Assembly: GCA_048615375.1 (NCBI GenBank)
Contig: JBMCLJ010000001.1
Location: 1 to 45,968, forward strand
DNA length: 45,968 nt
Direction of reading: 5' to 3'
Source of the DNA: Candidatus Dojkabacteria bacterium
GTDB taxonomy: Bacteria; Patescibacteriota; Dojkabacteria; JAOAGR01
A model generated the notes under the pieces. The model had not been told where the DNA came from and searched no databases. It worked only from the letters and a program-made list of their open reading frames with translations. Positions 4,737 through 45,968 of this stretch are shown piece after piece (within the stretch, counting starts at the first letter, position 1; each line of letters starts with the position of its first letter). Made by a program: the position numbers and the translations under genes.

Positions 4737-4918
4737 AATAGCAGTATTATGAATTACATCATGTACGGAAACTGATGAAAATTGGTTAAACCCTATTCAA
4801 CCTGTATAGTAAATGAATCGGAATATACATCAGCCGGCATACTCATAAGGCCTGGTTGATCTCGATACCCGGCTTTTTGTAAATATTCTTCATGGGGAAT
4901 CTGAAGCACATTTGGTAT

Positions 4919-5755
4919 TCATCGTCTATAAGCAATCCTATACTTTCCCTTACTTCCAGCTGGAAGATTGAGTTTGCCATTGTCGATGTATTGATCTTTT
5001 AAAAAGAACACAATCGTATCCTTCACCCCATCAGATTCGTCAAGCACTTCAACTTTTGCTTCCACAAATCCTCGATACGGAGTCTCTTTTCCTGTCACAG
5101 AAGATTTATACGTGAGAGTGATATCATATTTTTCTCCAGGCTTGACCATGTTTGTAGTGTTCACTAGCAGCTTTTCTCCAAGATACGCCTCCTTAAGAAC
5201 AGTTACATTATCAGGCTCAATGATTCTCTCACTCCGGCAATTCTTATCCTTAGTCGCATCACAAGTAGTCCATTCAATATTACCTTCTTTTGGCCAGGCT
5301 TTACGATTAATATTCACTGCCTCAATCCGCACAACTCCAATCCCTTCCGCCAGATACCAATCCTCTCGCAACCAGGCTTCCATAAATCTAACTCTGATGG
5401 CTGGTCCTGTATATGCTGGGGTCTCAACTTCCAGAACATCGTAATCTATGTGCCATGCATGATCATTTGTTTTACCACTTGCTTTTGTATTGCAAAATTC
5501 ATCATGTGTTTCAGGAGCAAACAAAAATTCTTTATCCCAGGTATTAGTTTTTTCCCATCGAATATCAAGCTCTGAAGGGCTAAGTAAGTATGGTGGATAT
5601 AATTGATTCTCATAAGAACCAAAGTAAAGACCAGGATCTACAGGCTTATTAAATGTATCTAAATTCGCGAATCCTTTTGATTTATAGGTTTTGAACCCCC
5701 TCGCCCATAGATAGGAATACTTCCAGTTATGTTTTTTAAAGGTACTACAAACCAC
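4919..5755 (-). CDS. Hypothetical protein
   Basis: 278-aa ORF starting 4 nt downstream of the 5760..6449 ORF on the same strand. No motif recognised. Confidence 0.5.
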   Translation of the reverse strand: MVCSTFKKHNWKYSYLWARGFKTYKSKGFANLDTFNKPVDPGLYFGSYENQLYPPYLLSPSELDIRWEKTNTWDKEFLFAPETHDEFCNTKASGKTNDHAWHIDYDVLEVETPAYTGPAIRVRFMEAWLREDWYLAEGIGVVRIEAVNINRKAWPKEGNIEWTTCDATKDKNCRSERIIEPDNVTVLKEAYLGEKLLVNTTNMVKPGEKYDITLTYKSSVTGKETPYRGFVEAKVEVLDESDGVKDTIVFFLKDQYIDNGKLNLPAGSKGKYRIAYRR

Positions 5756-5759
5756 CGAA

Positions 5760-6449
5760 TTACATCATCCGCTCCCCCCAGTACCCAGCATGCCCGGATT
5801 TAGTAAAACGCCACGGAGTAGACGTTACATCACATATTTTTTCAGGGGCTTCAATTTCTATTTTCGCGGTAACAGATTTATTAGCAGGAGTTCGTATTGT
5901 GATTTTTTTCTCCCACTTATAGTAGTCCGTAGAATCGTATAACCAATAGTTCCCTGGCTCATTCATCCAGTATTTTGACATATCATACGGGTCAATATTG
6001 ACGGTAATTGGATTACTCCACTCCCAATCTGATCCACTTGGACGGAACACCGCTTCGTAAGAACCGAGTTGTACATCTTTCAGTAGATTTCCATCTACCA
6101 CTACCTTCCCCTGGACGGCATTCATCCATTTCCCTTCAGTGGTACGACAGGTTTCTGATGTTGATTCAAGGTACTCGCAAAGATTAAGCTTCACATCAAG
6201 CTCTCCTGAATAGCTTTCTGGCTCATCAATAAACAGTGTATAGCTTTCACCCTGATTAACAGTACCAGGATCAACTCTTACCTTAAGCATTTTACCCTTT
6301 GAAGCATTGCCGTCAGTTGATGCTGAACTTCGTGAATCCGTATCAGTCTGTGTATTTATTATTACCGTAGTAACAATAATACTGAAGAGCAATATTACAA
6401 ATATTATAGGAATTAAATATTTCCTGGTCGGAAGATGAGGAAGTTGCAT
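5760..6449 (-). CDS. Hypothetical membrane-anchored or secreted protein
   Basis: 229-aa ORF with an N-terminal hydrophobic anchor (KYLIPIIFVILLFSIIVTTVII) followed by a Ser/Thr/Asp-rich linker. Confidence 0.55.
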   Translation of the reverse strand: MQLPHLPTRKYLIPIIFVILLFSIIVTTVIINTQTDTDSRSSASTDGNASKGKMLKVRVDPGTVNQGESYTLFIDEPESYSGELDVKLNLCEYLESTSETCRTTEGKWMNAVQGKVVVDGNLLKDVQLGSYEAVFRPSGSDWEWSNPITVNIDPYDMSKYWMNEPGNYWLYDSTDYYKWEKKITIRTPANKSVTAKIEIEAPEKICDVTSTPWRFTKSGHAGYWGERMM

Positions 6450-6943: not shown

Positions 6944-7174
6944 TCAATAACCTGCCGTGTACAAAGAATCATTTACGATCACACAACCTGATTTGTACCA
7001 CCAATCATGAGCAGCCGACATCCTACCCACGACCCAGGATTTCCAGGTAGCCTTTTTGATAAAAGCATAGTTTGCTTCCTGTGACTCACACTCGTACTCA
7101 TTCGTGTGATTGGAATGATGGTTGAATAAAACTTTTATAGTTTTTTGTGGTAAGGTTTTCATAGTAAGTTCCAT
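6944..7174 (-). CDS. Small hypothetical protein
   Basis: 76-aa ORF with no motif. Weak call. Confidence 0.3.
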   Translation of the reverse strand: MELTMKTLPQKTIKVLFNHHSNHTNEYECESQEANYAFIKKATWKSWVVGRMSAAHDWWYKSGCVIVNDSLYTAGY

Positions 7175-7350
7175 TGCTGGATTAGCATGAACCTTGCCGC
7201 TTGAGATTGCTTTATATCAGGTGCAGCATAGTACTACTCCGATTGACTTGCGAAGCATAACAGATTATATGTCATATGAGCTTTCGGTATCTTTATGAAG
7301 AGGAAAAGACTGAAGCTTGATATTTCAATTAATAACTAAGATAGTTCAAC

Positions 7351-7983
7351 ATGCACGTAGAAGTAATTGAATTTGTACGAAAAACACGAGGCGACTTGAA
7401 AAAGTCTAGAAATGAAAATGCTTTTATTTGGCTCATTTGTTTAGCTTTTGTAATTGTATTGTTATTTATTACATTACTAAAAGTTAATACTAGTTTTGAA
7501 CGTATGGCTTTTCTGTTTCTAGTTGTATTCTGTATTTTGATTGCTGTTGTTCCAATTTTCTTAACCTTAGAATTTTACAAAAATCAGTATACAAAAACTC
7601 TGAGAAATCTTGAGAAAGCGGAAATAATCCTCCAAAAAATGAATAGTGAAACTGATACTAAAAAATATGATTTTGGAAGTGGAATTTCTAAAACTTTATA
7701 TTACCTTAACAATAACTTTTTATTGTTTTACTATCCAAATCGGTTAGAAGTAATTTTTATTGATACATCAAAAATAGAAAAGGTAATTATCCGAGAAAGT
7801 CCCTATGAGTGGAATAAACAACTGTATATTAATGTTATTCACAACACGTATCAAACAAGTATAAATTCTCATTTATTTTTTCCTGAATTAGGCCCGCTTT
7901 CCAACTATACAAATGAAGTACAAGATATCATTGCTTTTCTCAAGTCTAAAGCGCAAGTAATTGAGGAAAAAAAGTTTTCATAA
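7351..7983 (+). CDS. Hypothetical membrane protein
   Basis: 210-aa ORF with two N-terminal hydrophobic helices (FIWLICLAFVIVLLFITLL and FLFLVVFCILIAVVPIFLTL). The DNA is very AT-rich. Confidence 0.55.
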   Translation: MHVEVIEFVRKTRGDLKKSRNENAFIWLICLAFVIVLLFITLLKVNTSFERMAFLFLVVFCILIAVVPIFLTLEFYKNQYTKTLRNLEKAEIILQKMNSETDTKKYDFGSGISKTLYYLNNNFLLFYYPNRLEVIFIDTSKIEKVIIRESPYEWNKQLYINVIHNTYQTSINSHLFFPELGPLSNYTNEVQDIIAFLKSKAQVIEEKKFS

Positions 7984-8004
7984 CATAAATAGACCTGATT
8001 TTAT

Positions 8005-8709
8005 TAACGTGAATGACATAATTAAGAATAAGCCTTCATAATCGTATAAACGAGACATGCGGCCATGTATCTCCAGAAGTATCCGTTTGCAGATCTGGGT
8101 GGACTTGATACTGATCCCTGTCTGTATTTTATGCTTCCGATAGCGGTTTCTATTCTTTGTCGTAATCTCCTTAATCGATCATATGCTTGCGTGACAAGCT
8201 GTTTTGTTCCCTTTCTTAGACCTGTTACAAAGGTAATACTTTTCTTTCCAAGTTTCCTCGTCAAAGGTTTTGACTGATAACCTGCATCTCCTACCAGAAT
8301 GCCTTCGATATCTTTTACCAGCGATAGAACTATCTTATGATCCTTATCTGATGTATTCCCGGAAGAAAGATGGATAGTTAACAGATTTCCATGCGGATCA
8401 GTAATCAAATGAAGTTTAAATCCATAAAACCAGCCCATACTGCTTTTCCCTCTATCAGGAAGATGAGATACTTTGTAATTGAATATTCTCTTATTGTTGC
8501 ATACAGGAAGAGGTACTGAATCAATGAGAAGTTGTTTGTTGATCGCATTGACAATATCGTCAACACTAACAAATATTTTTAAAACAATGTCATTTGAGAA
8601 ATTATAGTGTATTATGTCCATAAAGGCAGTTTGATTTTTATGTAAACAGTAAATGATACTGCCTTTTACCCTTTAGATAAAGGTGAATTGAATTACGTCA
8701 TTCACGTTA
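8005..8709 (-). mobile_element. IS982-like insertion sequence, short (about 0.7 kb) internally deleted derivative
   Basis: Terminal inverted repeats AACGTGAATGACATAATT (8006-8023) and AATTACGTCATTCACGTT (8691-8708) match at 17 of 18 positions. They bracket a DDE transposase ORF. Confidence 0.7.
8022..8621 (-). CDS. IS982-family DDE transposase lacking the N-terminal region
   Basis: 199 aa. The motifs LIDSVPLPVC, GWFYGFKLHL, LVGDAGYQS and RQRIETAIGSIK are typical of the IS982 DDE core. Family members are about 270-310 aa, so roughly 90 N-terminal residues are missing. Confidence 0.8.
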   Translation of the reverse strand: MDIIHYNFSNDIVLKIFVSVDDIVNAINKQLLIDSVPLPVCNNKRIFNYKVSHLPDRGKSSMGWFYGFKLHLITDPHGNLLTIHLSSGNTSDKDHKIVLSLVKDIEGILVGDAGYQSKPLTRKLGKKSITFVTGLRKGTKQLVTQAYDRLRRLRQRIETAIGSIKYRQGSVSSPPRSANGYFWRYMAACLVYTIMKAYS

Positions 8710-8767
8710 TTAGAGTCTTATCCATACTTTATATAGACAAAAACAAACACATCTTATATAATATATA

Positions 8768-10204
8768 ATGAGTCTTTTCTCAGAACTAGAACCTGCTAAT
8801 CCGAATACCTTAGTACAAGAAGGTGGTATGAGGGCTGTACAAGCTTAATCAACTACAGTTCGAACCAGGATTTATCGAAACGGTTTTACTACCTGCAGTA
8901 GCAGGAAATGTAACAGAACTTGCTATACGAGCTCAAACACAAATCCAAGCTTGGACTGGTATAAAAGACGATTCTACTCAAAGAATAGTAATTGAATCCA
9001 CACTACTTGCACATCCTAGTAATGATCCAGTAATTCGTTATATTTTCGCATCACTTTGTGAATACTTTTCTAACTCTGTAAATATTGAAAGATTACTTAC
9101 TACAGCAAGTTGGTTTGAATCAGCTGCTGAAATAGCAGAAACAGATCCAATTTTTTCAACAATATCAATGGACAAGCAGGGAAATGTATACTCTACTCTT
9201 GGAAATCCTGATTTAGAAGCAAAAGCTGCTTTGAAACAAAAGGCTAAAACCGAAAATGACACAACTGGCGAACAAAAAGTAACCCCCCAGATGATCACCC
9301 GCTTGCAAAATTTATGACAGGAAATACTCCTGTACATGTAATATATAAAGCAGTAGCTGACTGGATAAGAACTGCATCGATAGGACAAATCAATGATTCA
9401 GAAAAAGTGGAAAGGGTAATGGAATCACTTTTTAGTATAACCTGGGCTATGGGTGATAAAGTTAGGTCACTGTATTGGGAGTATTTATTTAAAGAAGCCT
9501 CATTAACTGATGAGCAAAGACAGACAATTCATCATATGTTAGCAGCGGATGAATTACCGAGTCTAGAATTCTTTTCTGTTGTACATAACGTCAGTTATAG
9601 CAAATTTCAGATGGATGCAAAAAGAAAAGTTAATCAAGCTCTAGATGGAAAAGGAAGGCTTTTTTCTAGCAGCGTTACTAAGAATTTGGCAAGTGTGAGA
9701 AGAGAATTAGAACGCAATGCAACTGGTACAATGAAAGACCTTCTGGATAGACGTTTAAGCTCTTTACCTGAGATGATAGAAGGAGATAGAGGCATTCGAG
9801 TACAAGGCGGTTTTTATGGCAATCAATATCTTTACGTTCCGCAATTTAGAGAGTTTGACCTTGGGTACAGTTTAATAGATTCAGGACAACAAACTAACAG
9901 AGCAGAAGATTTTTCAGGCTGGGTTTTTGGAGAATCAACTGTAAGAACAACAGGGTTTAATGGTATTTTAGAAGCAATTTATCAAGGTGAATCTATAGAT
10001 GGACCAAGCCTTTACAGTTTTAGATCCTCAATTAACGGAGCGATCGGAATTTACTGTCCAAAACCCGGTACATTTGGTATGGAAATTCTCTTTAGAAGAG
10101 CCAATGACGATGTAGCGAGACCAACCAATCAAAGACTTACAAATATGGACTTCTTAGCTGCATTTGCTAAAGATCTTGTATCAAGGTCAGGAGAACTTAC
10201 ATAA
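8768..10204 (+). pseudogene. Unknown gene split over three reading frames (two apparent frameshifts)
   Basis: An ATG ORF at 8768-8848 (26 aa) is followed by a 161-codon open frame at 8832-9317 with no ATG, GTG or TTG until near its end. That frame overlaps, through an ATGA stop/start, the 296-aa ORF at 9314-10204. A C6 run at 9283-9288 lies in the zone where both frames are open. Confidence 0.45.
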
Positions 10205-35893: not shown

Positions 35894-36628
35894 GTGCTAA
35901 AGAAAGTTAGAGGTATTTTTGTGAATCCAATGCGTGAAATATTTGCAAATTTGCCTTTTTACATTACTTTCTCAGAATGGATTAAAAAGAGTGATAAATA
36001 CGATCGTGAAGAATCTTTTGCTAGAGCTTTTAAATTATTAGGAATTGATCAAGATAGATTGAGAGCAATCGAATTATTTAGAACTTTTAATAACTTTGAT
36101 AGGAAATTATTAAGCTTAAATTTAAAAGAGTTTAGCTCACTGCCTTCCAGTTATAAATCCGAGGGTAGTGAATACGCTAAATTATTCTTAAATTCTATAC
36201 CACAAATCTTTAAGGACTATGAAGGCTTACTCAAGCTGATTACAAAAGTTAAAAAAGGAGAAGCTATAACGAATGAGTTCTTTAGCAAGTTTGATTGGTT
36301 TCCTACTAAAATCGATATTCCAAGATATTTTAACGAGATAGTTGGGATTATAGAAAAAAGAATAGATTTAATTAGTTCATCTAAAAATAATATCATTTTC
36401 GTTGAAGCCAGTAAATTTAACGATGTGATGAGTGAAAAGTATAAAGGTAAACAAAGGTTAAATATATCTCAAGAGGATGAGAACGTGATATTAGATTTAA
36501 TCTCTTCGTTGATAAAAGAAGAGCAAAGATTGTTTGTGGAATATTTGAATACACAATCAGTATCTTTAGACGAGAAGTTTAAGAACATCTTCCGACGAAG
36601 GGTTATTAATAGATTCTCAATAAATTAA
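35894..36628 (+). CDS. Hypothetical protein
   Basis: 244-aa AT-rich ORF with a GTG start on the track; an internal ATG lies at about 35930. No motif recognised. Confidence 0.45.
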   Translation: MLKKVRGIFVNPMREIFANLPFYITFSEWIKKSDKYDREESFARAFKLLGIDQDRLRAIELFRTFNNFDRKLLSLNLKEFSSLPSSYKSEGSEYAKLFLNSIPQIFKDYEGLLKLITKVKKGEAITNEFFSKFDWFPTKIDIPRYFNEIVGIIEKRIDLISSSKNNIIFVEASKFNDVMSEKYKGKQRLNISQEDENVILDLISSLIKEEQRLFVEYLNTQSVSLDEKFKNIFRRRVINRFSIN

Positions 36629-36629
36629 T

Positions 36630-37097
36630 ATGAACGACAAAGAATTACTCAAAAAACTAATCTCAATCCAAAGTTATGTAGATTCATCTAGAAATGAAAA
36701 GGAGATCGCAGATTTTTTAGTGAAATATCTTAAAGAGAATTTACCGTGGCTAGAAGTAGAGACTCAACAAGTTGAAGGGGATCGATACAACATCATTGCT
36801 AAGAATTCTGATAATCCAGACTACGTATTCATCTCTCACATGGACACAGTTCTGCCTAGTTCTAAAGATCAACTATATCCTTTTGAAAAAGACGGCAGAA
36901 TTTACGGACTCGGATCTACATATAAAACAAACTTGTCTAATGGAGGCTTTTTTGAGGCTGCGATTGTTGCAAACGCATGGAATTGTCTAGCGATTTCTTA
37001 TGGACCAGTTGGCACAGCTCACACTCCTGATGAGTATATTGAGATTCAAAGCTTTTTGAATTGTAAATCTAAATTTAAAGAACTACTGAAATCATAA
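36630..37097 (+). pseudogene. M20-family (ArgE/DapE-like) peptidase with large internal deletion
   Basis: The N-terminal part (LLKKLISIQS...YVFISHMDTV, then GRIYGLGS) is joined directly to the C-terminal part (ISYGPVGTAHTPDEYIEI). It is 155 aa against about 350-400 aa for the family. The DMK and dimerisation/lid region is absent. Confidence 0.55.
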
Positions 37098-37098
37098 A

Positions 37099-37347
37099 AT
37101 GGATATAATAAAAACACGAAAAATTCTAAAGCTGAGTAAAGATGACTACGCTGATGAAGAGGTTCAAGAAATAATTGATCAAACCGAAATGCTTGCAAGA
37201 TTTTTTATTGATATGCATATGAAAGATCAACTAAATGTTGAAGGAATTGAGGGGCTAGATCAAAATGTATTGAATCAATCGAAAATAATAAGATTATTTA
37301 CGAATCTTAAAACTAGCAAGTCAAAGTGTAGCAGTAAAAATGGCTAA
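37099..37347 (+). CDS. Small hypothetical protein
   Basis: 82-aa ORF starting 2 nt after the previous stop. Confidence 0.4.
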   Translation: MDIIKTRKILKLSKDDYADEEVQEIIDQTEMLARFFIDMHMKDQLNVEGIEGLDQNVLNQSKIIRLFTNLKTSKSKCSSKNG

Positions 37348-37550
37348 GTTATATAAGTTCTAAATTCGTGTTTAGTGATGAAAACCATTGTACAATAAGA
37401 CGAATTGCTTCTATGAGGCCAAAGAAGAAAGAGTTCGACGCTGAGACCCGTAGGGTCAAAAATACGCAGAGCGATGCGTGAATAGTAATGCGTAAAACCC
37501 TTCATAATATTTAACCAATAATAATATCCCGCTTTTTAAGATAAATATAT

Positions 37551-37597
37551 TTGACAATGTAAAGCTGTTACGATATGATATTGCGACTGAGTCGTAA
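37551..37597 (+). promoter_or_regulatory. Candidate promoter (TTGACA-17-TATGAT) plus 17-bp near-palindrome operator
   Basis: TTGACA is at 37551-37556 and TATGAT at 37574-37579. The near-palindrome TTGCGACTGAGTCGTAA at 37581-37597 pairs at 7 of 8 arm positions and ends 3 nt before the fur-like ATG. Confidence 0.4.
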
Positions 37598-37600
37598 TAA

Positions 37601-37969
37601 ATGATTATGAAAAATTTAAGACATTCTAAAAAACGAGATTTAATATTAGAAGTATTTCAGAATGGCGACTTATTAGATGCAAATGAAGTTTGTGCAAAAG
37701 TTCCTCAAGTAGACAGAGCTACAATTTACCGAAACCTAACTTTATTTGTTGAACAGGGAGTTTTAAGGGAGGTAAATATTAAAAAGGGGATCACGCATTA
37801 CGAATTAAACCATGAAGGAGACATTCATCAACATTTTGTTTGTGATGATTGCGATAAGGTGATTCCTGTAGATGTTGATCCAAATCTAATTAAATCACTT
37901 GTTCCAGAAGGAGTTGAGCTTAAAGATTTTGAGTTAAATCTGAAGGGTAAGTGTGGCGAGTGCAAGTAA
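37601..37969 (+). CDS. Fur-family metalloregulator (Fur/Zur/PerR/Nur-type)
   Basis: 122 aa with a wHTH (ATIYRNLTLFVEQGVL), then HQHFVCDDC and a C-terminal CGEC (HxH plus two CxxC pairs). Confidence 0.85.
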   Translation: MIMKNLRHSKKRDLILEVFQNGDLLDANEVCAKVPQVDRATIYRNLTLFVEQGVLREVNIKKGITHYELNHEGDIHQHFVCDDCDKVIPVDVDPNLIKSLVPEGVELKDFELNLKGKCGECK

Positions 37970-37994
37970 TATTTTTATTTTAAATGAAACAATT

Positions 37995-38960
37995 ATGAGA
38001 ATCGCATTTATGGGTAAAGGCGGAAGTGGGAAGACAACTCTAACTACTGCCTTTGCAAAATTTTTATTAAAACAAAAAAAAGATACACCAGTATTTTTAT
38101 TTGACGTAGATTTGAATTCACATATAGCAAACGAATTGGAAATTGATTTCCCTATTGAAAATTTTTTTGGAGGGAAATTTAAAGAAGTTTCAGACTTTAT
38201 TGAACCACAACTTTTAGAAAGATTATCTTTAAAGGAAATTCCAGAATTTGGAACAATTCTACCAAACCAAGATACTAAATTCATAAAATTAGATGATGTT
38301 GAAAATAAGTTTGTTAATAGATATGGAGTTAAGAAAGATAACTTAACACTTTTTGCAGCAGGAAATCACTTAACAAAAGATCATGCAGGGCATTCTTGTT
38401 ACCACGATATGCTTAATACTTATGAATTAATCATGCATAGAATTGCTGATAATAAAAATAATTATGTGATTGCAGATACTACAGCAGGAATAGACAATGT
38501 AGGGACTTCTTTATATATGGCATATGATCTTGTTGTATTTATTGTTGAACCGACAGATAGAAGTATTGCAGTTTATAAAGATTATATAAATGTAGCTGAG
38601 GTAGATAAATCAAAAGTATTTGTTGTTGGAAATAAAATTGAGAATGAAGCTGATGAGAAGTTTATCAAAAAAATTATTGAAGAAGACAGAATTCTTGCCT
38701 TATTTAAAGCCAATAAAGAAATTTATAGAGATGCAGACCAGACTTCCTACGACCATTTTATAGAAGAACATAAAGACCAATTACAAACTATTCTTAATAA
38801 ACTTGATAGCACTGATAAAGATTGGGATTCGTACTTTCAAGAACTTTTCAGATTATTCAAAAAAGAGACCACCGGATGGTGGAGTGATTTTTATGGAGTT
38901 GATCTTGAAGACAAGTTTAAAGAAGATTATTCATTTATAAATAATAATTTTAATAATTAA
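37995..38960 (+). CDS. CooC-like (SIMIBI/MinD-class) P-loop NTPase, paralogue 1, with C-Y-H motif
   Basis: Has the deviant Walker A MGKGGSGKTT, then GHSCYHDM, IADTTAGIDN, VEPTDRSI and VGNKIENEADEKFI, collinear with CooC-type proteins. The start is taken at the internal ATG (MRIAF) 25 nt after the fur-like stop. Confidence 0.75.
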   Translation: MRIAFMGKGGSGKTTLTTAFAKFLLKQKKDTPVFLFDVDLNSHIANELEIDFPIENFFGGKFKEVSDFIEPQLLERLSLKEIPEFGTILPNQDTKFIKLDDVENKFVNRYGVKKDNLTLFAAGNHLTKDHAGHSCYHDMLNTYELIMHRIADNKNNYVIADTTAGIDNVGTSLYMAYDLVVFIVEPTDRSIAVYKDYINVAEVDKSKVFVVGNKIENEADEKFIKKIIEEDRILALFKANKEIYRDADQTSYDHFIEEHKDQLQTILNKLDSTDKDWDSYFQELFRLFKKETTGWWSDFYGVDLEDKFKEDYSFINNNFNN

Positions 38961-38964
38961 TATT

Positions 38965-39915
38965 ATGAAAATTGCATTTTTAGGGAAAGGTGGGAGTGGT
39001 AAAACAACATTATCTGCTGCATTTGCTACATATATGCATGAACAGGAAAAGAATGTGCTTTTAGTAGATGCAGATGTAAATGTTCATGTAAATAGAATTA
39101 TCGGAATTGAAGAATCGGATCTTCAACCTATTTCAAGAAATATGAATGGAATTGTCAGTTATGTTAAGGGAGAGAGAGTTGATTTGGGAAATGCTCCATT
39201 CATTAGTGCTACTCCTCCATCAAAAGGATCAAGGTTTATAACTTTAGAAAAAGAAGATGAATTACTAAAAGGAAGTACAGTAAGTAATAAGGAAGGTTTA
39301 AGATTAATGACTATCGGAACTTATGAAGGCGAAGATATAGGGTTTACCTGTTATCATGGAAAAACAGATGCATTCATAATTTTCTTAAATCACTTGTTAG
39401 ATACAACTAGTGACTATTTAGTTGTAGATTCTGTCACAGGTACAGATAATCTAGGAAATCCACTAATCTACTCGTATGATCTAAATGTAATTGTAGTCGA
39501 ACCTACAAAAAAATCTATTCAAGTCTACAAAGATTTCATTCAAGGCATTGAAAGATTCGATTATCCAATAAACATTGTCGTTATTGGAAATAAAGTTGAA
39601 ACCAAAGAAGATGAAGAATTTATAAAACAACATATTAAGGGGGAACACTTGTTAGGATTTGTAAGTAAATCTGATGAGATGAAATCTTTTGACCAGGGCA
39701 GTAAAGATGATTTTAAGAAATTTGTAAGTGCAAACTCCGAAATCTTTAACAAAATATTAAAAGAATTAGATTCAAAGCAAAGAGATTGGGATTTATATTT
39801 AAAAAATATCAGAGCAAATTTTTCCCAAATGGCTCAGGAATATTACAACAGTTACTATCATGTTGATTTAGAATCCAGAGTTGATAATACTTTTTCATTT
39901 AAAGACGTTGTTTAA
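38965..39915 (+). CDS. CooC-like P-loop NTPase, paralogue 2, with C-Y-H motif
   Basis: LGKGGSGKTT, GFTCYHGKT, VVDSVTGTDN, VEPTKKSI and IGNKVETKEDEEFI. Same architecture as paralogue 1, including a helical C-terminal extension of about 70 aa. Confidence 0.75.
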   Translation: MKIAFLGKGGSGKTTLSAAFATYMHEQEKNVLLVDADVNVHVNRIIGIEESDLQPISRNMNGIVSYVKGERVDLGNAPFISATPPSKGSRFITLEKEDELLKGSTVSNKEGLRLMTIGTYEGEDIGFTCYHGKTDAFIIFLNHLLDTTSDYLVVDSVTGTDNLGNPLIYSYDLNVIVVEPTKKSIQVYKDFIQGIERFDYPINIVVIGNKVETKEDEEFIKQHIKGEHLLGFVSKSDEMKSFDQGSKDDFKKFVSANSEIFNKILKELDSKQRDWDLYLKNIRANFSQMAQEYYNSYYHVDLESRVDNTFSFKDVV

Positions 39916-39916
39916 T

Positions 39917-41338
39917 ATGTATCAATCTATTAAGCCATACATTCATCCTAGATTAAAAGGGGTTGTCGAAGCTAAAAATAAGTTATTTGAAGTTTCTAAA
40001 TTCCATAATGGAGCAATTCATATCCTCATGCCCGAAATAATGGATGAAAATATAAGTGAATTAAAAAAAGTTTTTGAAGAATTAGGAATAGATTATGATA
40101 TTAGATTTGCACACAAAACTAATAAATCATCTGCTCTTGCAAGGCAAGCAAAGTTAAACAAAATTAATATTGATGTTGCTTCATACAATGAATTAGTCTC
40201 AGCTTTATCGAATGGATTTACAGGGAAAGAGATCAGTTGTTCAGGACCAAAAGGTAAAAAATTCTTATTATTAGCTCTGCAACATAACTGTTTAATAAGC
40301 ATTGATTCAGTAAATGAACTTGAAACTATTATTGATTTATCTAAAAAATACAATATTTCAAGTATTGATATCGTTGTGCGAATCAATGATCTAGCAGGTA
40401 ACGATAGAACTTTATTAAAAAAGAATACAAAGTTTGGTATATCACAAAATAAATTGGAAGAGATTAAAAATCTTATTAAAAAAAATGAGTTTATAAATTT
40501 AAAAGGAATACATTTTCATTTCGATGAGTTTCAATCTGAAATTAAAGCAGGTGCAATTGAGAATATTTTAGATATTTTTCAACAACTTTATTCGGAAGGT
40601 TTTACACCAACAATTATTGATATAGGTGGGGGATTTAGAGTAAAAGAACTTGAAGATAGAGGTGATTGGGAAAAGTATATAGATTTTTTAAGTGATGCAA
40701 AAAGAAATAATACTCTAAGTGATACCTGGGGAAATAGAGCCTACGGAATTCATACAAATGAAAGAGGAGGAATTGAAGGTCGAGAAATAGTTACTAAAAG
40801 ATACAGAGAACTTAATAATAGTGAATTTTTAAAATCAATTCTAACCAAAGAGTTTGAAGAGAACCAGCCAATTTATAAAAAGATAAATGAAAGTTTATTC
40901 AAAGTAATGATTGAACCTGGATATTCTCTTTCAATTAATACAGGATTTACTATTTTAAAAGTTGAATCATATAAGACTTTAAACAATGGCGATGAAGCAA
41001 TTACTGTTAATGCAAATATACTAAATCTATCTAGCAGAATGTGGGAATACTATTTAGATCCAATTTTAGTTGCAAAAGAAGAAAAGAATGGTGGTGATTT
41101 TTATGGGTACATACTTGGAAATCTATGTAGAGATGATGATGTGTTAATTCAAAGGAAAGTTCATTTTAGCCAAAGACCAAAGGTTGGAGATTTGATTCTA
41201 TTAATGAATACTTCATCTTATATTTCTGATTTTGAAGATGGCAATCCTATTCAACAGGAAGTAGGAAAGAAATTTATTGCAAAAAATATTAATAATTCAA
41301 TTGAAATATTTGATGAGAATTCATCAGAACTTATTTAA
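39917..41338 (+). CDS. Fold-type III PLP-dependent decarboxylase (Orn/DAP/Arg decarboxylase family)
   Basis: Contains FAHKTNKS (the PLP Lys), IDIGGGF, EPGYSL and GNLCRDDD. The start is taken at the ATG at 39917, 1 nt after the upstream stop. Confidence 0.8.
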   Translation: MYQSIKPYIHPRLKGVVEAKNKLFEVSKFHNGAIHILMPEIMDENISELKKVFEELGIDYDIRFAHKTNKSSALARQAKLNKINIDVASYNELVSALSNGFTGKEISCSGPKGKKFLLLALQHNCLISIDSVNELETIIDLSKKYNISSIDIVVRINDLAGNDRTLLKKNTKFGISQNKLEEIKNLIKKNEFINLKGIHFHFDEFQSEIKAGAIENILDIFQQLYSEGFTPTIIDIGGGFRVKELEDRGDWEKYIDFLSDAKRNNTLSDTWGNRAYGIHTNERGGIEGREIVTKRYRELNNSEFLKSILTKEFEENQPIYKKINESLFKVMIEPGYSLSINTGFTILKVESYKTLNNGDEAITVNANILNLSSRMWEYYLDPILVAKEEKNGGDFYGYILGNLCRDDDVLIQRKVHFSQRPKVGDLILLMNTSSYISDFEDGNPIQQEVGKKFIAKNINNSIEIFDENSSELI

Positions 41339-41352
41339 CTTATAAAGATTTT

Positions 41353-42666
41353 ATGATTTACAAACACATATCACAGCTTATTGGGAACACTCCAATATTA
41401 GAAGTACCAAAAGAAGTTACAGATTTAAAAAATATAAATTTGTATGCAAAACTTGAATATATGAATCCATTTGGTTCATTAAAAGATAGAATTGCTAAAA
41501 ATATGCTTGAACCTATAAAAAGTGAAATGAAAGATTCAAATAAAACAGTTTTAGAAGCTTCAAGTGGAAATACAGGTAAAGCATTAGCAATCTTATCTTC
41601 TGTAGATGGAATAAAGTTTAAAGCTGTCTCAAATAGAATGAAAATTCCAGAGATGAGAATGATTATGCAACTTAGTGGTGCAGAGATTGAAGAATTACCT
41701 GGTATTTCGGATTGTCCGGATTTAAACGACCCAAATAGCTATACAACTGCTGCAAGCAATATGGCCAAAAATGAACCCGATAAATATCGCTACACTGACC
41801 AGTATTTTAATGAAAGAAACTGGCAAGCACATTTAGAAAGCGGAAAAGAAATAACTGAAGAACTAAGTAAAGTAGATTTCTTATTTACAATGCTTGGGAC
41901 TACAGGTTCATCTGTAGGAATCGGAAGAGCTTTAAAAGAAGTAAATCCTGAACTAAATGTTTATGGTGTTGTTGCATCAGCAGGTCAACATATTCCAGGT
42001 GCAAGGAATTCAAATGAATTGTGGGAGGTTGGATTTTATAATCCAGAGTTCTATAAAGACATTCTTTCTGAAACTACTGATGGTGCAATTAGTGGAGCTG
42101 TTAGTCTTATTCAAAAAGTAGGAATTTTATCCGGACCAACTGCTGGAGCAACATTTAATGCGGCATTAAAAAAACTAAAAGAATTAGATAAAGAGTTAGA
42201 AGGTAAGAATGAAACATATCACGCAGTATTCATTGTATGTGATAGAGTTGAGCCATATCTAAATTTCTTTAAATCTCATAAACCTGAACTATTTAGTAAA
42301 TCTACTTCATCAAAACCAAAAGTTAGTGATGTAGTGGTAACCGATACAGAGAAAATTAAAATCTCAATAGATGACCTTAAAAATCGTCAGAATGAATTCA
42401 TGGTTATAGATATAAGAGGAAACTTCCCGTACTCTATTGGACATATTGAATCATCAATTAATATTGTAGATGAATCATTGGCCAATATGATTGAAGAAGG
42501 AAAAGTATTCCCAATGGATAAAAAAATTGTTGTAGTTTGTAGGATTGGAGACATTTCAGGAAGGTATGCTCAATTTCTAAGAAATCAAGGATATGAAGCC
42601 TATTCATTAGATGGTGGAATACAAAATTGGAAAGATAAAAATTTAGAGTTAGGAAAAACTATTTAA
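41353..42666 (+). CDS. Cysteine synthase/CBS-fold PLP enzyme fused to a C-terminal rhodanese domain
   Basis: The PLP-enzyme part has MNPFGSLKDRIA (the PLP Lys), SSGNTGKALA and GTTGSSVGIG. The C-terminal part has VIDIRGNFPYSIGHIESSINI...VVVCRIGDISGRYAQFL...LDGGIQNW, a rhodanese with its active-site Cys. Confidence 0.85.
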   Translation: MIYKHISQLIGNTPILEVPKEVTDLKNINLYAKLEYMNPFGSLKDRIAKNMLEPIKSEMKDSNKTVLEASSGNTGKALAILSSVDGIKFKAVSNRMKIPEMRMIMQLSGAEIEELPGISDCPDLNDPNSYTTAASNMAKNEPDKYRYTDQYFNERNWQAHLESGKEITEELSKVDFLFTMLGTTGSSVGIGRALKEVNPELNVYGVVASAGQHIPGARNSNELWEVGFYNPEFYKDILSETTDGAISGAVSLIQKVGILSGPTAGATFNAALKKLKELDKELEGKNETYHAVFIVCDRVEPYLNFFKSHKPELFSKSTSSKPKVSDVVVTDTEKIKISIDDLKNRQNEFMVIDIRGNFPYSIGHIESSINIVDESLANMIEEGKVFPMDKKIVVVCRIGDISGRYAQFLRNQGYEAYSLDGGIQNWKDKNLELGKTI

Positions 42667-42668
42667 CT

Positions 42669-43388
42669 ATGTCCTATAGTAAATTCTGTGAAATAAACGA
42701 CTATATTTTTGAAGCTCCTAATGAAGCTCGTAAAGTTAAATTTCAAAAACTTTTCAGCAAAGTTAAGGGTGAGAATGTTTTAGATTTAGGATGCGGATAT
42801 GCAGGAATTTATTGGGCATTATCATATTTCGAAAGAGTAAATCACATTTATTTCTATGATTATTATCAAGAAAATATTGATAGATTGAACTCTATTATTG
42901 ATCAACTAACTCCTGAATATATAGAAGAAAGTTTTTCTGAAACTATTGAATATCTAAAAGATATTAATTTGATTTATAGAACAAAATCCTATTCGCAAAT
43001 CGCAGAAGAGTTACTTTCAAAAATAAAAGTGGTAAAACAACAAAGTTTTTTTAATGAACTTCCAACTTTTAATTTTGATATTGTTGTCTCAAGTGAGGCA
43101 ATTGAATGTGTTGATAATGAAACTGAGTTCAAAAGTGTATTAAAGAATATTTTTTCTTCACTAAAATATAAAGGGAAATTAATTGGAAATATTCTTAATT
43201 ACAGCAAAACAACTGACTTAACAAAAGAACTCATTTCATCAAAGATGGAAGGTAAATTAAATCCTAATGAGAATGAGCTAGAAGTATTACTTAAAAAAGC
43301 AAATTTCAATAATGTTGATATTGAAGTTGTTGAGTTTCCAGAATTAAATAATCGATCTAAGTATATTTATTATTCTGCGGTAAAGTGA
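42669..43388 (+). CDS. Class I SAM-dependent methyltransferase (NNMT/PNMT/TEMT-like by pattern)
   Basis: Motif I is VLDLGCGYAGIYWALSYFERVNHIYFYDYYQENI. The resemblance to the PF01234 pattern is by eye only. Confidence 0.65.
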   Translation: MSYSKFCEINDYIFEAPNEARKVKFQKLFSKVKGENVLDLGCGYAGIYWALSYFERVNHIYFYDYYQENIDRLNSIIDQLTPEYIEESFSETIEYLKDINLIYRTKSYSQIAEELLSKIKVVKQQSFFNELPTFNFDIVVSSEAIECVDNETEFKSVLKNIFSSLKYKGKLIGNILNYSKTTDLTKELISSKMEGKLNPNENELEVLLKKANFNNVDIEVVEFPELNNRSKYIYYSAVK

Positions 43389-44587
43389 TAATCTCCAAAA
43401 TCCTATTTCCCACACTAAACAACTCAGAATTAACATACTTAGACTCAGCCTCTACTACTCAAAAACCAAAAGTGGTATTAGATGCAATTCAATCACATCT
43501 TTCGGAACTAAACGTGAATCCTGGACGTGGAAGTTACGATCCTACATCAAAACTTGAGAAGGAGATAGAATCAATACGAAACCAAACTGCAAACTTTATC
43601 AATGCAGAAAATAAAGAAATCGTATTTACATCAGGTGCAACAGAAGGACTAAACACAGTTGCATATTCATGGGGTTTGCATAATTTAGAAGATGGAGATG
43701 AGATTTTATTATGTGAAGAAGATCACGAATCTACAGTTAAACCATGGTTTCAAATTAAAAAACTTTTTGAAAAGCAAGGAATAAATATTTTTATAAAATA
43801 TTACAAACATCACCAATATCTTGGCAATGCAGATCTTGAAAGCATAAAAAATGAACTCACAGATAAAACAAGGCTGATTGTTGTTACTCATATTCACAAT
43901 GTCCACGGGACTGTTTCTGATATGAAGGTAATTAGAAAATTAGCAGGTGATCAAGTTTTAATTCTTTTGGATGCTTGCCAAAGTATTTCTCACATCCAAA
44001 TTGATGTTAAGGAACTAGATATAGATTTTCTAGTTTTCTCTGGACATAAAATGTTTGCACTCGATAATATCGGAGTTTTATTTGCAAACCAAAATATTAA
44101 TATGTATTTACAACCATTTATTGTCGGTGGGAAAAATATAATTGACAAACATGATCTTGAAGAAAAGGGTGTTGAGATTTATAAGATACTTGAAGCAGGA
44201 TCACAAAATGTTACAGGTTTAAAATCGCTTGAAGCAGCAATCAACTTTATTCAAGGAATAGGATATGATGAGATACATAAATATATTAATGAGCTAACAA
44301 AATATCTTTACGAACAGCTCTCTCAGTTAGGAATCATAGAATTTCTTGCGGGCTATGCATTCGACCAATCTAGGATTGGATATGGATTAATTTCATTTCG
44401 AGTACACGGAGTCAGTTCAACAGATATTGGCGAGCTACTTAATCAACACCAAATTTATGTACGAACTGGGAACCATTGCACATCAAATGGAAAACATACA
44501 AGTGATTCTATAAGAGTATCAATGCATATTTACAACAGCAAAGATGATATAGATAAATTGATATCTGTGCTTAAAACGATTCACTAA
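43385..44587 (+). CDS. Class V aminotransferase, SufS/CsdA-like cysteine desulfurase
   Basis: Contains YLDSASTTQKP, TSGATEGLN, VTHIHNVHG, FSGHKM (the PLP Lys) and RTGNHCT (the catalytic Cys). The GTG start overlaps the upstream stop (GTGA). Confidence 0.8.
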   Translation: MIISKILFPTLNNSELTYLDSASTTQKPKVVLDAIQSHLSELNVNPGRGSYDPTSKLEKEIESIRNQTANFINAENKEIVFTSGATEGLNTVAYSWGLHNLEDGDEILLCEEDHESTVKPWFQIKKLFEKQGINIFIKYYKHHQYLGNADLESIKNELTDKTRLIVVTHIHNVHGTVSDMKVIRKLAGDQVLILLDACQSISHIQIDVKELDIDFLVFSGHKMFALDNIGVLFANQNINMYLQPFIVGGKNIIDKHDLEEKGVEIYKILEAGSQNVTGLKSLEAAINFIQGIGYDEIHKYINELTKYLYEQLSQLGIIEFLAGYAFDQSRIGYGLISFRVHGVSSTDIGELLNQHQIYVRTGNHCTSNGKHTSDSIRVSMHIYNSKDDIDKLISVLKTIH

Positions 44588-44702
44588 CAAATATCAACAA
44601 CAAAGTTATCTTAGCTATATGTTAAAAGCAAATTGTGAATTTTTGAGTGAAAAGCTCATCTCCGAGAACAGTTGTAGGAAGGACTTTATAGCATTCAAGA
44701 TC

Positions 44703-44737
44703 GAGTTCGACATTTCGCTACGCGGGGTCATTTTATG
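44703..44737 (+). repeat. Degenerate copy of the tRNA-Glu 3' end plus flank (possible att remnant)
   Basis: GAGTTCGAC-N13-GGGGTCATTTTATG compares with the tRNA sequence GGGTTCGAATCCCCGTGGAGTCATTTTATG. The 11-mer GTCATTTTATG is exact, and the spacing differs by 5 nt. Confidence 0.3.
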
Positions 44738-44950
44738 TAATACATATCACGAAATAGATATCATAACGCTTTTTAACTTCGAATTTTTATAATTTCCAAT
44801 CTTGTTGCTATACATACTAAGTCAGTAGTTAAGTATGCTCAAGTTTATTCAATCTAAAAATATAAATTTGCATACAAGTGGAATTTTTGCGAGCTGCTGA
44901 AAATTGAATAAATGTATATTTTTACATCTTTCGCACTAATCCCTATAGGA

Positions 44951-45916
44951 TCATGTTAGATTCTGTTCCAAATAAATCTTCATATTTTGAGTGATAGTAG
45001 GTTTAATAACATCCCATTTCTGCTGGTACATAGAGATTTCTTCATTAAGTCTTCTCCTGCTTCTTTTGATCCAGGTAATAATACTTAAGGTAATATGATT
45101 CCTTTGAGATCGTCCCGAGTGAGACTGACATTTCTCTAAACCACAGCATTGTTTTAACTCTCTGTGGTATACCTCGATCTCCCATCTGCCTTTGAAGACT
45201 TTTTTGATTTCTTCTCTTGTTGGGTTTTCTTGATTAGTACCTACATAATCCGTGCGTCCGTCTCTGGATACAAACCGGAATACTGTTATAAATCCATAAC
45301 CCTTTAAATGAACTTTTACTCCTTGTTCTGGTATATCAAGTGTTCTTAATTCCTGCTTTCTGTTTACATGTCTATTGCTTTTTAACCCCATTACCCAAAC
45401 CCATCCAAGTTGCCTTATGCACTTTAGGTTATCAAGGCTTGAGTACCATGAGTCTGCTACTACATACTCTGGTGTTAATCCTCGTTTGTGAGTATTGATA
45501 AGCATCTCTCTAAAGTGATCATTTTTGGTTTTTCCATCTTCTGGTGGATTGTAAATTCTGTAATCAAATGGAACTTTATCGTCTTCCATCAATGCCACAA
45601 AGTTAAGTATACCTATTCCAGGTATTGTCTCATGAACGTTTCCAGAACACTGCCAGTTTACAAGCTCTATTGCTTTGCTTCTGGATTTATCTGCTACGGT
45701 ATCATCTGCCATGAGAATGAAGGGTTTATTAATATATTTTGATGCCTCTTCCCATATGTCTGAAGGACTGTATTTATGATCTTTAAGCCAGCGGGAGATG
45801 GAATCGTGTGATACGTTAACAGGAGATACTTCTGACATAGATAGAGAGCTGTATCTATCAGCTGTGCTCATCAAAAATGAGCAATATAATTCTTTGCTAC
45901 ATTTACTTTGTGACAT
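44951..45916 (-). CDS. IS701/IS4-superfamily DDE transposase
   Basis: 321 aa with LMADDTVADKS, YVVADSWYSS and GRWEIEVYHRELKQCCGLEKCQ. The flanking inverted repeats are weak (CCCTATAGG at 44941 against CCCTCTATAAG on the minus strand at 45955-45965). The element may run off the window end. Confidence 0.8.
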   Translation of the reverse strand: MSQSKCSKELYCSFLMSTADRYSSLSMSEVSPVNVSHDSISRWLKDHKYSPSDIWEEASKYINKPFILMADDTVADKSRSKAIELVNWQCSGNVHETIPGIGILNFVALMEDDKVPFDYRIYNPPEDGKTKNDHFREMLINTHKRGLTPEYVVADSWYSSLDNLKCIRQLGWVWVMGLKSNRHVNRKQELRTLDIPEQGVKVHLKGYGFITVFRFVSRDGRTDYVGTNQENPTREEIKKVFKGRWEIEVYHRELKQCCGLEKCQSHSGRSQRNHITLSIITWIKRSRRRLNEEISMYQQKWDVIKPTITQNMKIYLEQNLT

Positions 45917-45968
45917 GGTAGTTTATTTTTATCTATACCATTATAAAACTTTTTCTTATAGAGGGTAG

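Follow-up and report, generated by a model that had tools for sequence, protein, structure and literature searches.

A 45,968-nucleotide stretch of a Candidatus Dojkabacteria genome (contig JBMCLJ010000001.1, positions 1 to 45,968; referred to below as the window) carries two adjacent genes, here A1 and A2, whose products resemble CooC, the ATPase that inserts nickel into carbon monoxide dehydrogenase (CODH), and in which the C-x-C metal motif of CooC is replaced by C-Y-H. The locus raises the question of what a tandem pair of CooC-like proteins does between a Fur-family regulator and a set of biosynthetic enzymes, several of them dependent on pyridoxal phosphate (PLP), and whether the pairing itself is the source of a Cys2His2 metal site, as an earlier note on this DNA had proposed. 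By sequence and fold, the two proteins are members of a sister family of CooC, widespread and uncharacterised, within the MinD/SIMIBI-class ATPases with a deviant Walker A motif. We consider it somewhat probable that they dimerise in dependence on ATP and metal, in this case probably with each other, and that the dimer is physically tied to enzymes of ligand synthesis encoded in the same metal-starvation operon.

Relationship of A1 and A2 to CooC1 and other SIMIBI ATPases

Translation of the two genes bears out the motifs of the earlier note and shows a deviant Walker A motif GKGGSGKTT at residues 7-15 of both proteins, a switch I of the pattern D-x-D-x-N-x-H (DVDLNSH in A1, DADVNVH in A2), a switch II of the pattern D-x-x-x-G-x-D (DTTAGID in A1, DSVTGTD in A2), and the EPT and GNK motifs. 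A1 and A2 are 31% identical to each other. The A1 protein is taken to start at MRIAF; a GTG at 37953 is disfavoured because of its overlap with the fur gene and because all homologues begin at MRIAF. In phmmer searches against all PDB chains, CooC1 of Carboxydothermus hydrogenoformans (3kje) was recovered with E-values of 3.8e-10 for A1 and 3e-7 for A2, and it was the sole match of either protein reaching past the P-loop. In this alignment, which on sequence grounds is far beyond chance, the segments 'ghsCYHd' of A1 and 'gftCYHg' of A2 fall on 'ggsqCYCre' of CooC1, i.e. on C112-Y-C114, showing that the C-Y-H loop is homologous to the C-x-C loop as had been supposed. Cys112 and Cys114 of CooC1 are strictly conserved and serve as Zn or Ni ligands where the two subunits of the dimer meet, and dimerisation of the protein is induced by ADP or metal (PMC6006190).

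Structural comparisons point in the same direction. AlphaFold2 (AF2) monomer models of A1 and A2 have predicted local distance difference test scores (pLDDT) of 92.7 and 93.3, respectively, and a predicted template modelling score (pTM) of 0.92, with the lowest confidence in the loop directly before the C-Y-H motif. Foldseek ranks CooC1 first, with E-values of 4.8e-12 (A1) and 3.1e-11 (A2), followed by ParA, MinD, the ATPase-type HypB and NifH. The models also show a C-terminal extension that is helical throughout, starting at about residue 245, and contains a DWD motif (residues 276-278 in A1, 274-276 in A2). The helical character and the DWD motif of the tail described earlier thus hold, but its length of about 70 residues does not: the net excess over CooC1 is nearer 45 residues because CooC1 itself has about 35 residues past the aligned part.

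Pfam assigns A1 and A2 to the broad CbiA/MinD/ParA superfamily only, and NCBIfam contains no model specific to them, its matches being confined to the P-loop and far under their cut-offs. The ParA_partition model scores 33-39 bits against a cut-off of 180 and minD_bact 21-33 bits against 213, so the pair does not cluster with the partition ATPases, in agreement with the original assignment. The match to PF10609 (Mrp) is limited to residues 7-54 of A2, and neither protein has a CxxC motif; the cobW/UreG (G3E) models are absent among the Pfam and NCBIfam matches of both. As a separate observation, the GNK motif continues as N-K-I-E in A1 (38628-38639) and N-K-V-E in A2 (39586-39597), compared to N-K-V-R in CooC1, and is thereby close to N-K-x-D, the guanine-specificity motif of the G3E GTPases.

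Conservation and phyletic distribution of the C-[YF]-H family

We defined the family by the motifs GKGGSGKTT, D-x-D-x-N-x-H, C-[YF]-H, D-x-x-x-G-x-D, EPT and GNK, a length of about 310-330 residues, and the helical C-terminal domain; the two window paralogues score 396 and 403 bits against its profile. A word-indexed search recovered at least 200 homologues, with C-[YF]-H present in 120/120 of the matches listed, and a profile search of 1.84 billion representatives gave 366 clusters at 50% identity with E<=1e-30. In 138 further representatives the motif reads CYH (113), CFH (22), CHH (2) or CIH (1), and it was seen in 77/80 genome loci, the other three being over-extended open reading frame (ORF) calls with the motif outside the scanned span. 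The motif is therefore near-universal, and the survey of its frequency and neighbours that the earlier note had called for also uncovers a recurrent Fur/PLP-enzyme context outside the actinomycetes (see below). Invariant columns of the alignments include the two P-loop lysines (K8, K13), T14/T15, D37, D39, N41, C135 and H137, and further D161, G165, D167, E185-P-T and N213; both A1 and A2 carry every one of them.

Family members are found in Streptomyces and many other actinomycetes, Ktedonobacteria, Melainabacteria, Eubacteriales, Bdellovibrionales, a gammaproteobacterial metagenome-assembled genome (MAG), Parcubacteria, Saccharibacteria, TGA-recoded contigs and a Woesearchaeote. A tree of the family resolves three clades that match the gene contexts. 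Both window paralogues are placed in the clade of the decarboxylase operons, A1 on a long branch, and the DWD/[RK]DW motif is kept in two of the three clades but not in that of the Fur-ATPase-PALP/rhodanese type. Some homologues are labelled 'CO dehydrogenase maturation factor' by JGI. Full-text literature searches, in which the family was not queried by sequence or accession, found no paper describing it. The TGA-recoded homologues (L170/L171, 8001-9883) yield a P-loop 'MWKWWSGKTT' when called with TGA as Trp, whereas translation table 25 (TGA as Gly) restores GKGGSGKTT; the contigs themselves thus give direct evidence for use of the Gracilibacteria/SR1 code.

Gene neighbourhoods and the host genome

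Contextual information was gathered from 160 loci obtained in genome and metagenome scans, in which homologues of the window neighbours were located. Four arrangements recur: 1) [Fur]-ATPase-decarboxylase-PALP/rhodanese-AT5, where AT5 is a SufS-like class-V aminotransferase; 2) Fur-ATPase-PALP/rhodanese; 3) Fur-ATPase; and 4) a solitary gene in actinomycetes. In about 50 non-actinomycete loci the ATPase gene is syntenic with those for Fur, PALP-rhodanese, decarboxylase and AT5, and a gut Eubacteriales contig has a five-gene version in the same order as the window. Fur adjoins the ATPase gene in 33 of the non-actinomycete loci scanned.

In the window the order is fur-like, A1, A2, decarboxylase, PALP-rhodanese, methyltransferase, SufS-like (Table 1). 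As the intergenic spacing across these seven genes is -4 to 25 nt, they constitute one operon; A1 and A2 are separated by 4 nt and the decarboxylase ATG lies 1 nt past the A2 stop. The active-site Cys of the rhodanese domain is present (CRIGDISGR) and kept in clade I. The SufS-like protein scores 329 bits against the sufS subfamily model, under its cut-off of 475 bits.

Table 1. Features of the A1/A2 operon and its flanks, in window coordinates
Feature	Position	Strand	Remarks
Sigma-70-like promoter TTGACA-17-TATGAT	37551..37579	+	11/12 consensus positions; best promoter-like site in 37000-45000
Degenerate operator palindrome TGCGACTGAGTCGTA, 9/12	37582..37596	.	Between -10 box and fur ATG
Fur-family regulator, 122 aa, H-x-H-x2-CxxC...CxxC	37601..37969	+	Pfam FUR 6e-19
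A1, divergent CooC-like ATPase	37995..38960	+	321 aa; CooC1 is best PDB match by sequence and fold
A1 His-rich loop NHLTKDHAGHSCYH, ending in C135-Y-H137	38364..38405	+	Translation, group alignment, alignment to CooC1 C112/C114; C135-Y-H137 codons at 38397-38405
A2, CooC-like ATPase nearer the family consensus than A1	38965..39915	+	316 aa
A2 C129-Y-H131 motif	39349..39357	+	Translation, alignment to CooC1
Fold-type III PLP decarboxylase (DapDC/BtrK-like)	39917..41338	+	Pfam Orn_Arg_deC_N 1e-24; PDB matches diaminopimelate decarboxylases, BtrK
Cysteine-synthase-fold PLP enzyme fused to rhodanese	41353..42666	+	Pfam PALP + Rhodanese
NNMT/PNMT/TEMT-type methyltransferase	42669..43388	+	Pfam
SufS-like class-V aminotransferase/cysteine desulfurase (AT5)	43385..44587	+	Aminotran_5 1.7e-95; GTG start overlaps methyltransferase stop
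Terminator-like hairpin past last gene	44712..44728	+	

An apparent downstream neighbour of the solitary genes in high-GC actinomycetes was rejected as an antisense artefact of naive ORF calling. At L013/L081 (9036-9428) and 25 other actinomycete or Ktedonobacteria loci, the ORF downstream of the solitary ATPase gene corresponds to Pfam PF20704 'NucS shadow ORF', implying that what is conserved there is in reality nucS, which runs in the opposite direction; it has no evident functional link to the ATPase.

The host assembly is 1.36 Mb and 92% complete, with relatives of 0.6-2.3 Mb. GC content falls from 40-48% to about 30% over 35900-45968, which comprises the operon and upstream ORFs, against about 41% for the genome. 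The family is present in only 4/41 related genomes, and the three relatives that have it carry the three-gene Fur-ATPase-PALP/rhodanese type rather than the seven-gene type. Given the low GC and this sparse distribution of another module type, the operon is likely to be a horizontally acquired island. Elsewhere in the genome there is a second Fur-family gene (contig C116:1229-2381; 144 aa, HHHH-x3-CxxC) directly after a flavodoxin gene, which is probably the housekeeping iron-responsive Fur, so that the regulator of the island would be an extra, dedicated one. The other candidate metallochaperone of the genome, a COG0523 protein with a GCICCV motif and a striking Cys/His/Asp/Glu-rich insert (...EGCCGGDCGCCGGGCSSDHDHEHEGHHNHEHEH...) is encoded among dTDP-rhamnose genes (C106:1855-2898, minus strand). 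The genome has its own SUF system and no Prismane/CODH gene (PF03063) was found in the 92%-complete assembly (controls positive, 5/14 genomes), which makes both a classical CooC role and a role replacing SUF unlikely for A1 and A2.

Paired forms and gene fusions

About 158 of the 160 loci have a single family gene, and besides the window only L006 shows two. This and the family-wide occurrence of C-[YF]-H do not support the proposal that pairing of the two paralogues is what creates a Cys2His2 site, because by analogy with UreG a homodimer would already yield it in most organisms. The L006 pair, from a Bdellovibrionales MAG (7010-8945), has the motifs GDCYHF and KACYHG and is without Fur or PLP-enzyme neighbours.

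A1-type proteins, about 40-87% identical to that of the window, precede an A2-type gene in every case that could be placed in context. Such operons read COG0523-Fur-A1-A2-decarboxylase-PALP/rhodanese-methyltransferase-AT5 in L168/L169 (A1 identity 62%), A1-A2-decarboxylase-PALP/rhodanese-methyltransferase in the TGA-recoded L170/L171 (about 40%), and Fur-A1-[A2::decarboxylase]-PALP/rhodanese-methyltransferase-AT5 in L172/L173 (87%). In the last of these (3823-6195) A2 and the decarboxylase form a 790-residue in-frame fusion, in which a sense codon replaces the TAA stop of the window. The A1-type copies are set apart by a specific H-x-C-x-H (H133-x-C135-x-H137 in the window), by a His-rich loop in most of them, and by departures from near-invariant positions (FDVDLNSH for DADxNxH, TILPN for TTPP). 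In the group alignment A2 stays near the consensus at the positions where they deviate.

Further fusions link the ATPase to the methyltransferase. Three 50%-identity clusters (P0054, P0164 and P0232) consist of ATPase::methyltransferase proteins of about 550 residues, whose methyltransferase part is 31% identical to that of the window (E 9e-28). In L177 such a fusion precedes a second ATPase gene, behind which lies the decarboxylase gene. In addition, P0123 is a 562-residue fusion of the ATPase to a HAD-family hydrolase. The tree places the L177 and L006 pairs as two further duplications, separate from that of A1/A2 and from each other, so that tandem pairs arose independently at least three times. 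The methyltransferase accompanies 5/5 of the two-ATPase operons scored for it (fused to the first ATPase in L177) and 0/8 of the complete single-ATPase decarboxylase operons. We also considered whether the window operon arose by merger of a 'Fur-ATPase-PALP' module contributing A1 with an 'ATPase-DC-PALP-AT5' module (DC, decarboxylase) contributing A2, and rejected this origin, both paralogues lying inside the decarboxylase-operon clade.

Regulation and the identity of the metal

A palindrome TGCAAC-N3-GTTGCA, derived from four loci, was then found in 29/72 other loci at the start of the ATPase or Fur gene. It has 41 matches in 32.8 kb beside ATPase/Fur starts versus 32 in 662 kb elsewhere, an enrichment of about 26-fold. 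The fit with an adjacent Fur-like regulator noted earlier is thus strengthened, in that the Fur-family link is real and kept across phyla together with a conserved operator. A copy nearly identical to that of the window, TGCGACTGAGTTGCA, occurs in L168. In L168/L169 two copies (TGCGACTGAGTTGCA and TGCGACATAATTGCA; 1216-1266) precede the COG0523 gene (cobW + CobW_C, 1289-2290) that heads the homologous operon.

The core of the palindrome, TGCAA-N5-TTGCA, resembles the Nur box of Streptomyces, tTGCaa-N5-ttGCAA (PMC2691836). Sequence comparison did not place the regulator among the Fur, Zur, PerR and Nur types, its matches to Fur, PerR and Nur structures being all weak and about equal (Nur, 3eyy, 1.5e-5). 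A genome-wide operator scan as a means of defining the regulon and its metal was likewise uninformative. The COG0523 neighbour and the analogy to chelator synthases suggest zinc as the cognate metal, and the CooC/UreG ancestry or analogy and the Nur-like operator suggest nickel.

The neighbouring enzymes and a putative metal ligand

The only PDB matches with the PALP + rhodanese architecture of the window enzyme are 8h4q and 8h4h, the structures of aspergillomarasmine A (AMA) synthase. In this enzyme and in Fda4, condensation of O-phosphoserine and an amino acid yields a metal chelator or Dap precursor (PMC12751119). The window enzyme scores about equally well against ordinary CysK. A literature search on PDB 8H4Q/8H4H found nothing on the ATPase family. 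By analogy with SbnA and AMA synthase, the most likely product of the operon enzymes is a small metal ligand of the amine/carboxylate, possibly thiol, type made from O-phosphoserine.

Proposed function and alternative explanations

From the homology to the CooC1 loop and the analogy with UreG we can reasonably infer a Cys/His site at the dimer interface throughout the family. ATP binding would close a sandwich dimer and juxtapose the two C-x-H loops, giving a UreG-like Cys2His2 site for a divalent metal, of which Zn or Ni are the likeliest, and ATP hydrolysis would reopen it. The protein would then act as a switch that handles or senses metal, its synthesis being confined to scarcity of the cognate metal. 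In the window lineage a heterodimer of A1 and A2 is probable, with A1 contributing H133-x-C135-x-H137 and the His-rich loop for metal capture, and A2 contributing C129/H131. An obligate heterodimer is plausible in this lineage, and a heterodimer is the most economical reading, because A1-type genes are always adjacent to A2-type genes and each paralogue is fused to one enzyme. As the fusions would attach the dimer physically to pathway enzymes (A2 to the decarboxylase, an A1-type protein to the methyltransferase), ATP- and metal-dependent dimerisation may also unite these two enzymes.

Several points count against this proposal. We infer metal binding, metal identity, nucleotide use and oligomeric state for all members, and the structure models are of single chains, the heterodimer being proposed from gene adjacency and fusions. 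The correlation of two ATPases with the methyltransferase reflects only two independent evolutionary events, and the family genes of actinomycetes are solitary, without Fur or PLP neighbours, so that coupling to enzymes is not universal. The operator copy of the window is degenerate, matching at 9/12 positions, and operator sites are not enriched genome-wide (40 at >=10/12 vs 45 expected). By position the Fur-like protein appears to lack the Nur-specific Ni-site histidines (His70, His72, His126), with no His at the equivalent of His126 as judged by offset from the CxxC motifs only, and its metal is not assignable.

The same metal-binding family might operate without a heterodimer, A1 and A2 forming separate homodimers with, e.g., A2 as a decarboxylase-bound partner and A1 as a His-rich metal-capture chaperone. 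A homodimer is indeed the expected ancestral state in an overwhelmingly single-copy family, both proteins retain all catalytic and motif residues, and each is fused to a different enzyme. However, an A1-type protein was never seen without an adjacent A2-type, the 4-nt spacing suggests coupled translation, and the repeated independent tandem pairing suggests selection on pairing itself; we regard separate homodimers as a possible but rather unlikely arrangement. It is considerably less probable that the proteins are Fe-S carriers or scaffolds of the Mrp/NBP35/NifH kind, with the C-x-H loops bridging a [2Fe-2S] or [4Fe-4S] cluster and sulfur supplied by the SufS-like desulfurase and the rhodanese. 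While the presence of both sulfur enzymes in the operon, the conserved rhodanese Cys, the inclusion of NifH and Mrp-type HypB among the fold relatives and the Fur-family regulation would suit such a role, the genome owns a SUF system, the family lacks the CxxC of Mrp and PF10609 covers only its P-loop, many members have no desulfurase or rhodanese neighbour, and the decarboxylase and methyltransferase have no role in Fe-S assembly.

We attach a similarly low probability to a function without any metal site, in which the Cys, with the His as base, is a persulfide-relay or catalytic residue of an ATP-dependent pathway enzyme comparable to BioD and CobQ of the same superfamily. The tight linkage to biosynthetic enzymes, the three kinds of fusion and the sulfur-relay context speak for it. 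Yet homology links the motif to a proven metal site, a deviant Walker A with the signature Lys8 marks dimer-switch ATPases and not BioD/CobQ-type synthetases, and the actinomycete members are without sulfur enzymes. That A1 and A2 are genuine CooC/AcsF (COG3640) proteins maturing a Ni-Fe-S CODH, or ParA/MinD-type positioning ATPases, is very improbable and already largely refuted, despite the JGI labels on several homologues and the position of ParA and MinD structures next after CooC1 in the fold search. The failure to find a CODH gene in the 92%-complete genome and the missing strictly conserved second Cys oppose the former, and the confinement of the ParA and MinD models to the P-loop far under their cut-offs, with no ParB or MinE/MinC context, opposes the latter.

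Beyond the ATP- and metal-dependent dimer that we favour for A1 and A2, there is a more speculative generalisation, which we put forward as doubtful but worth stating: the C-x-H ATPases might represent a new class of ATP/metal-gated dimerisation modules that assemble biosynthetic enzymes. Centred on a Cys/His metal site, the heterodimer of the two-paralogue form would join the methyltransferase to the decarboxylase, such that the metal switches the synthesis or loading of its own new ligand, and the module would have spread horizontally from ultra-small bacteria to Streptomyces. If true, metal-gated assembly would match the Fur-family repressor at the post-translational level.

Nucleotide-dependent metallochaperones (UreG, HypB, CooC and COG0523) are few, and each is informative on metal allocation in cells. 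The present family is large and phylogenetically broad, and its invariant Cys-x-His loop corresponds by homology to a metal site that is proven. Its genes are consistently tied to a regulator of metal starvation and to an enzyme built like a zinc/nickel-chelator synthase. Its paired form and its fusions to decarboxylase, methyltransferase and HAD domains name concrete partners, and the system bears both on metal scarcity in very small genomes and on bacterial aspergillomarasmine-like chelators.

Comparison with known systems

CooC1 (PDB 3KJE-3KJI) has the fold common to A1 and A2, and shares with them the deviant Walker A GKGGxGKTT, the D-x-x-G switch II followed by EP, and a metal loop at the same position of which the first Cys and the Tyr are kept. 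It differs in that its second ligand is a Cys, replaced by His in A1, A2 and nearly every family member seen; in A1 and A2 the helical C-terminal domain is also longer and an additional insert lies between switch I and the metal loop, and their context comprises Fur and PLP enzymes rather than coo/acs genes. The COG0523 metallochaperones of Zur regulons (ZigA/ZagA/Zng1, CobW) similarly handle metals in a nucleotide-dependent manner under a Fur-family metal-starvation regulator, but are a separate family with a CxCC motif. Nbp35-Cfd1, the A1/A2 halves of ArsA, and BagA/BagB of M. tuberculosis are duplicated MinD/Get3-like ATPases that act as hetero-(pseudo)dimers whose interface holds a ligand site; their kinship to the A1/A2 family is no closer than the common fold. 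On the side of the enzymes, AMA synthase and Fda4 combine a cysteine-synthase-fold PLP domain with a rhodanese-like domain as in the window, but are fungal and without an ATPase partner.

UreG belongs to another SIMIBI branch, that of the G3E GTPases, and the resemblance of its C-x-H motif to that of A1 and A2 is convergent or very distant, since there is no sequence match to the UreG/cobW models. Its invariant Cys-Pro-His binds Ni at the dimer interface, where the C-x-H motifs of the two subunits of a nucleotide-dependent homodimer together make up a Cys2His2 metal site (PMC3792862), and in this respect UreG, a direct precedent that the earlier note had not named, is the closest functional analogy for the site proposed in A1 and A2.

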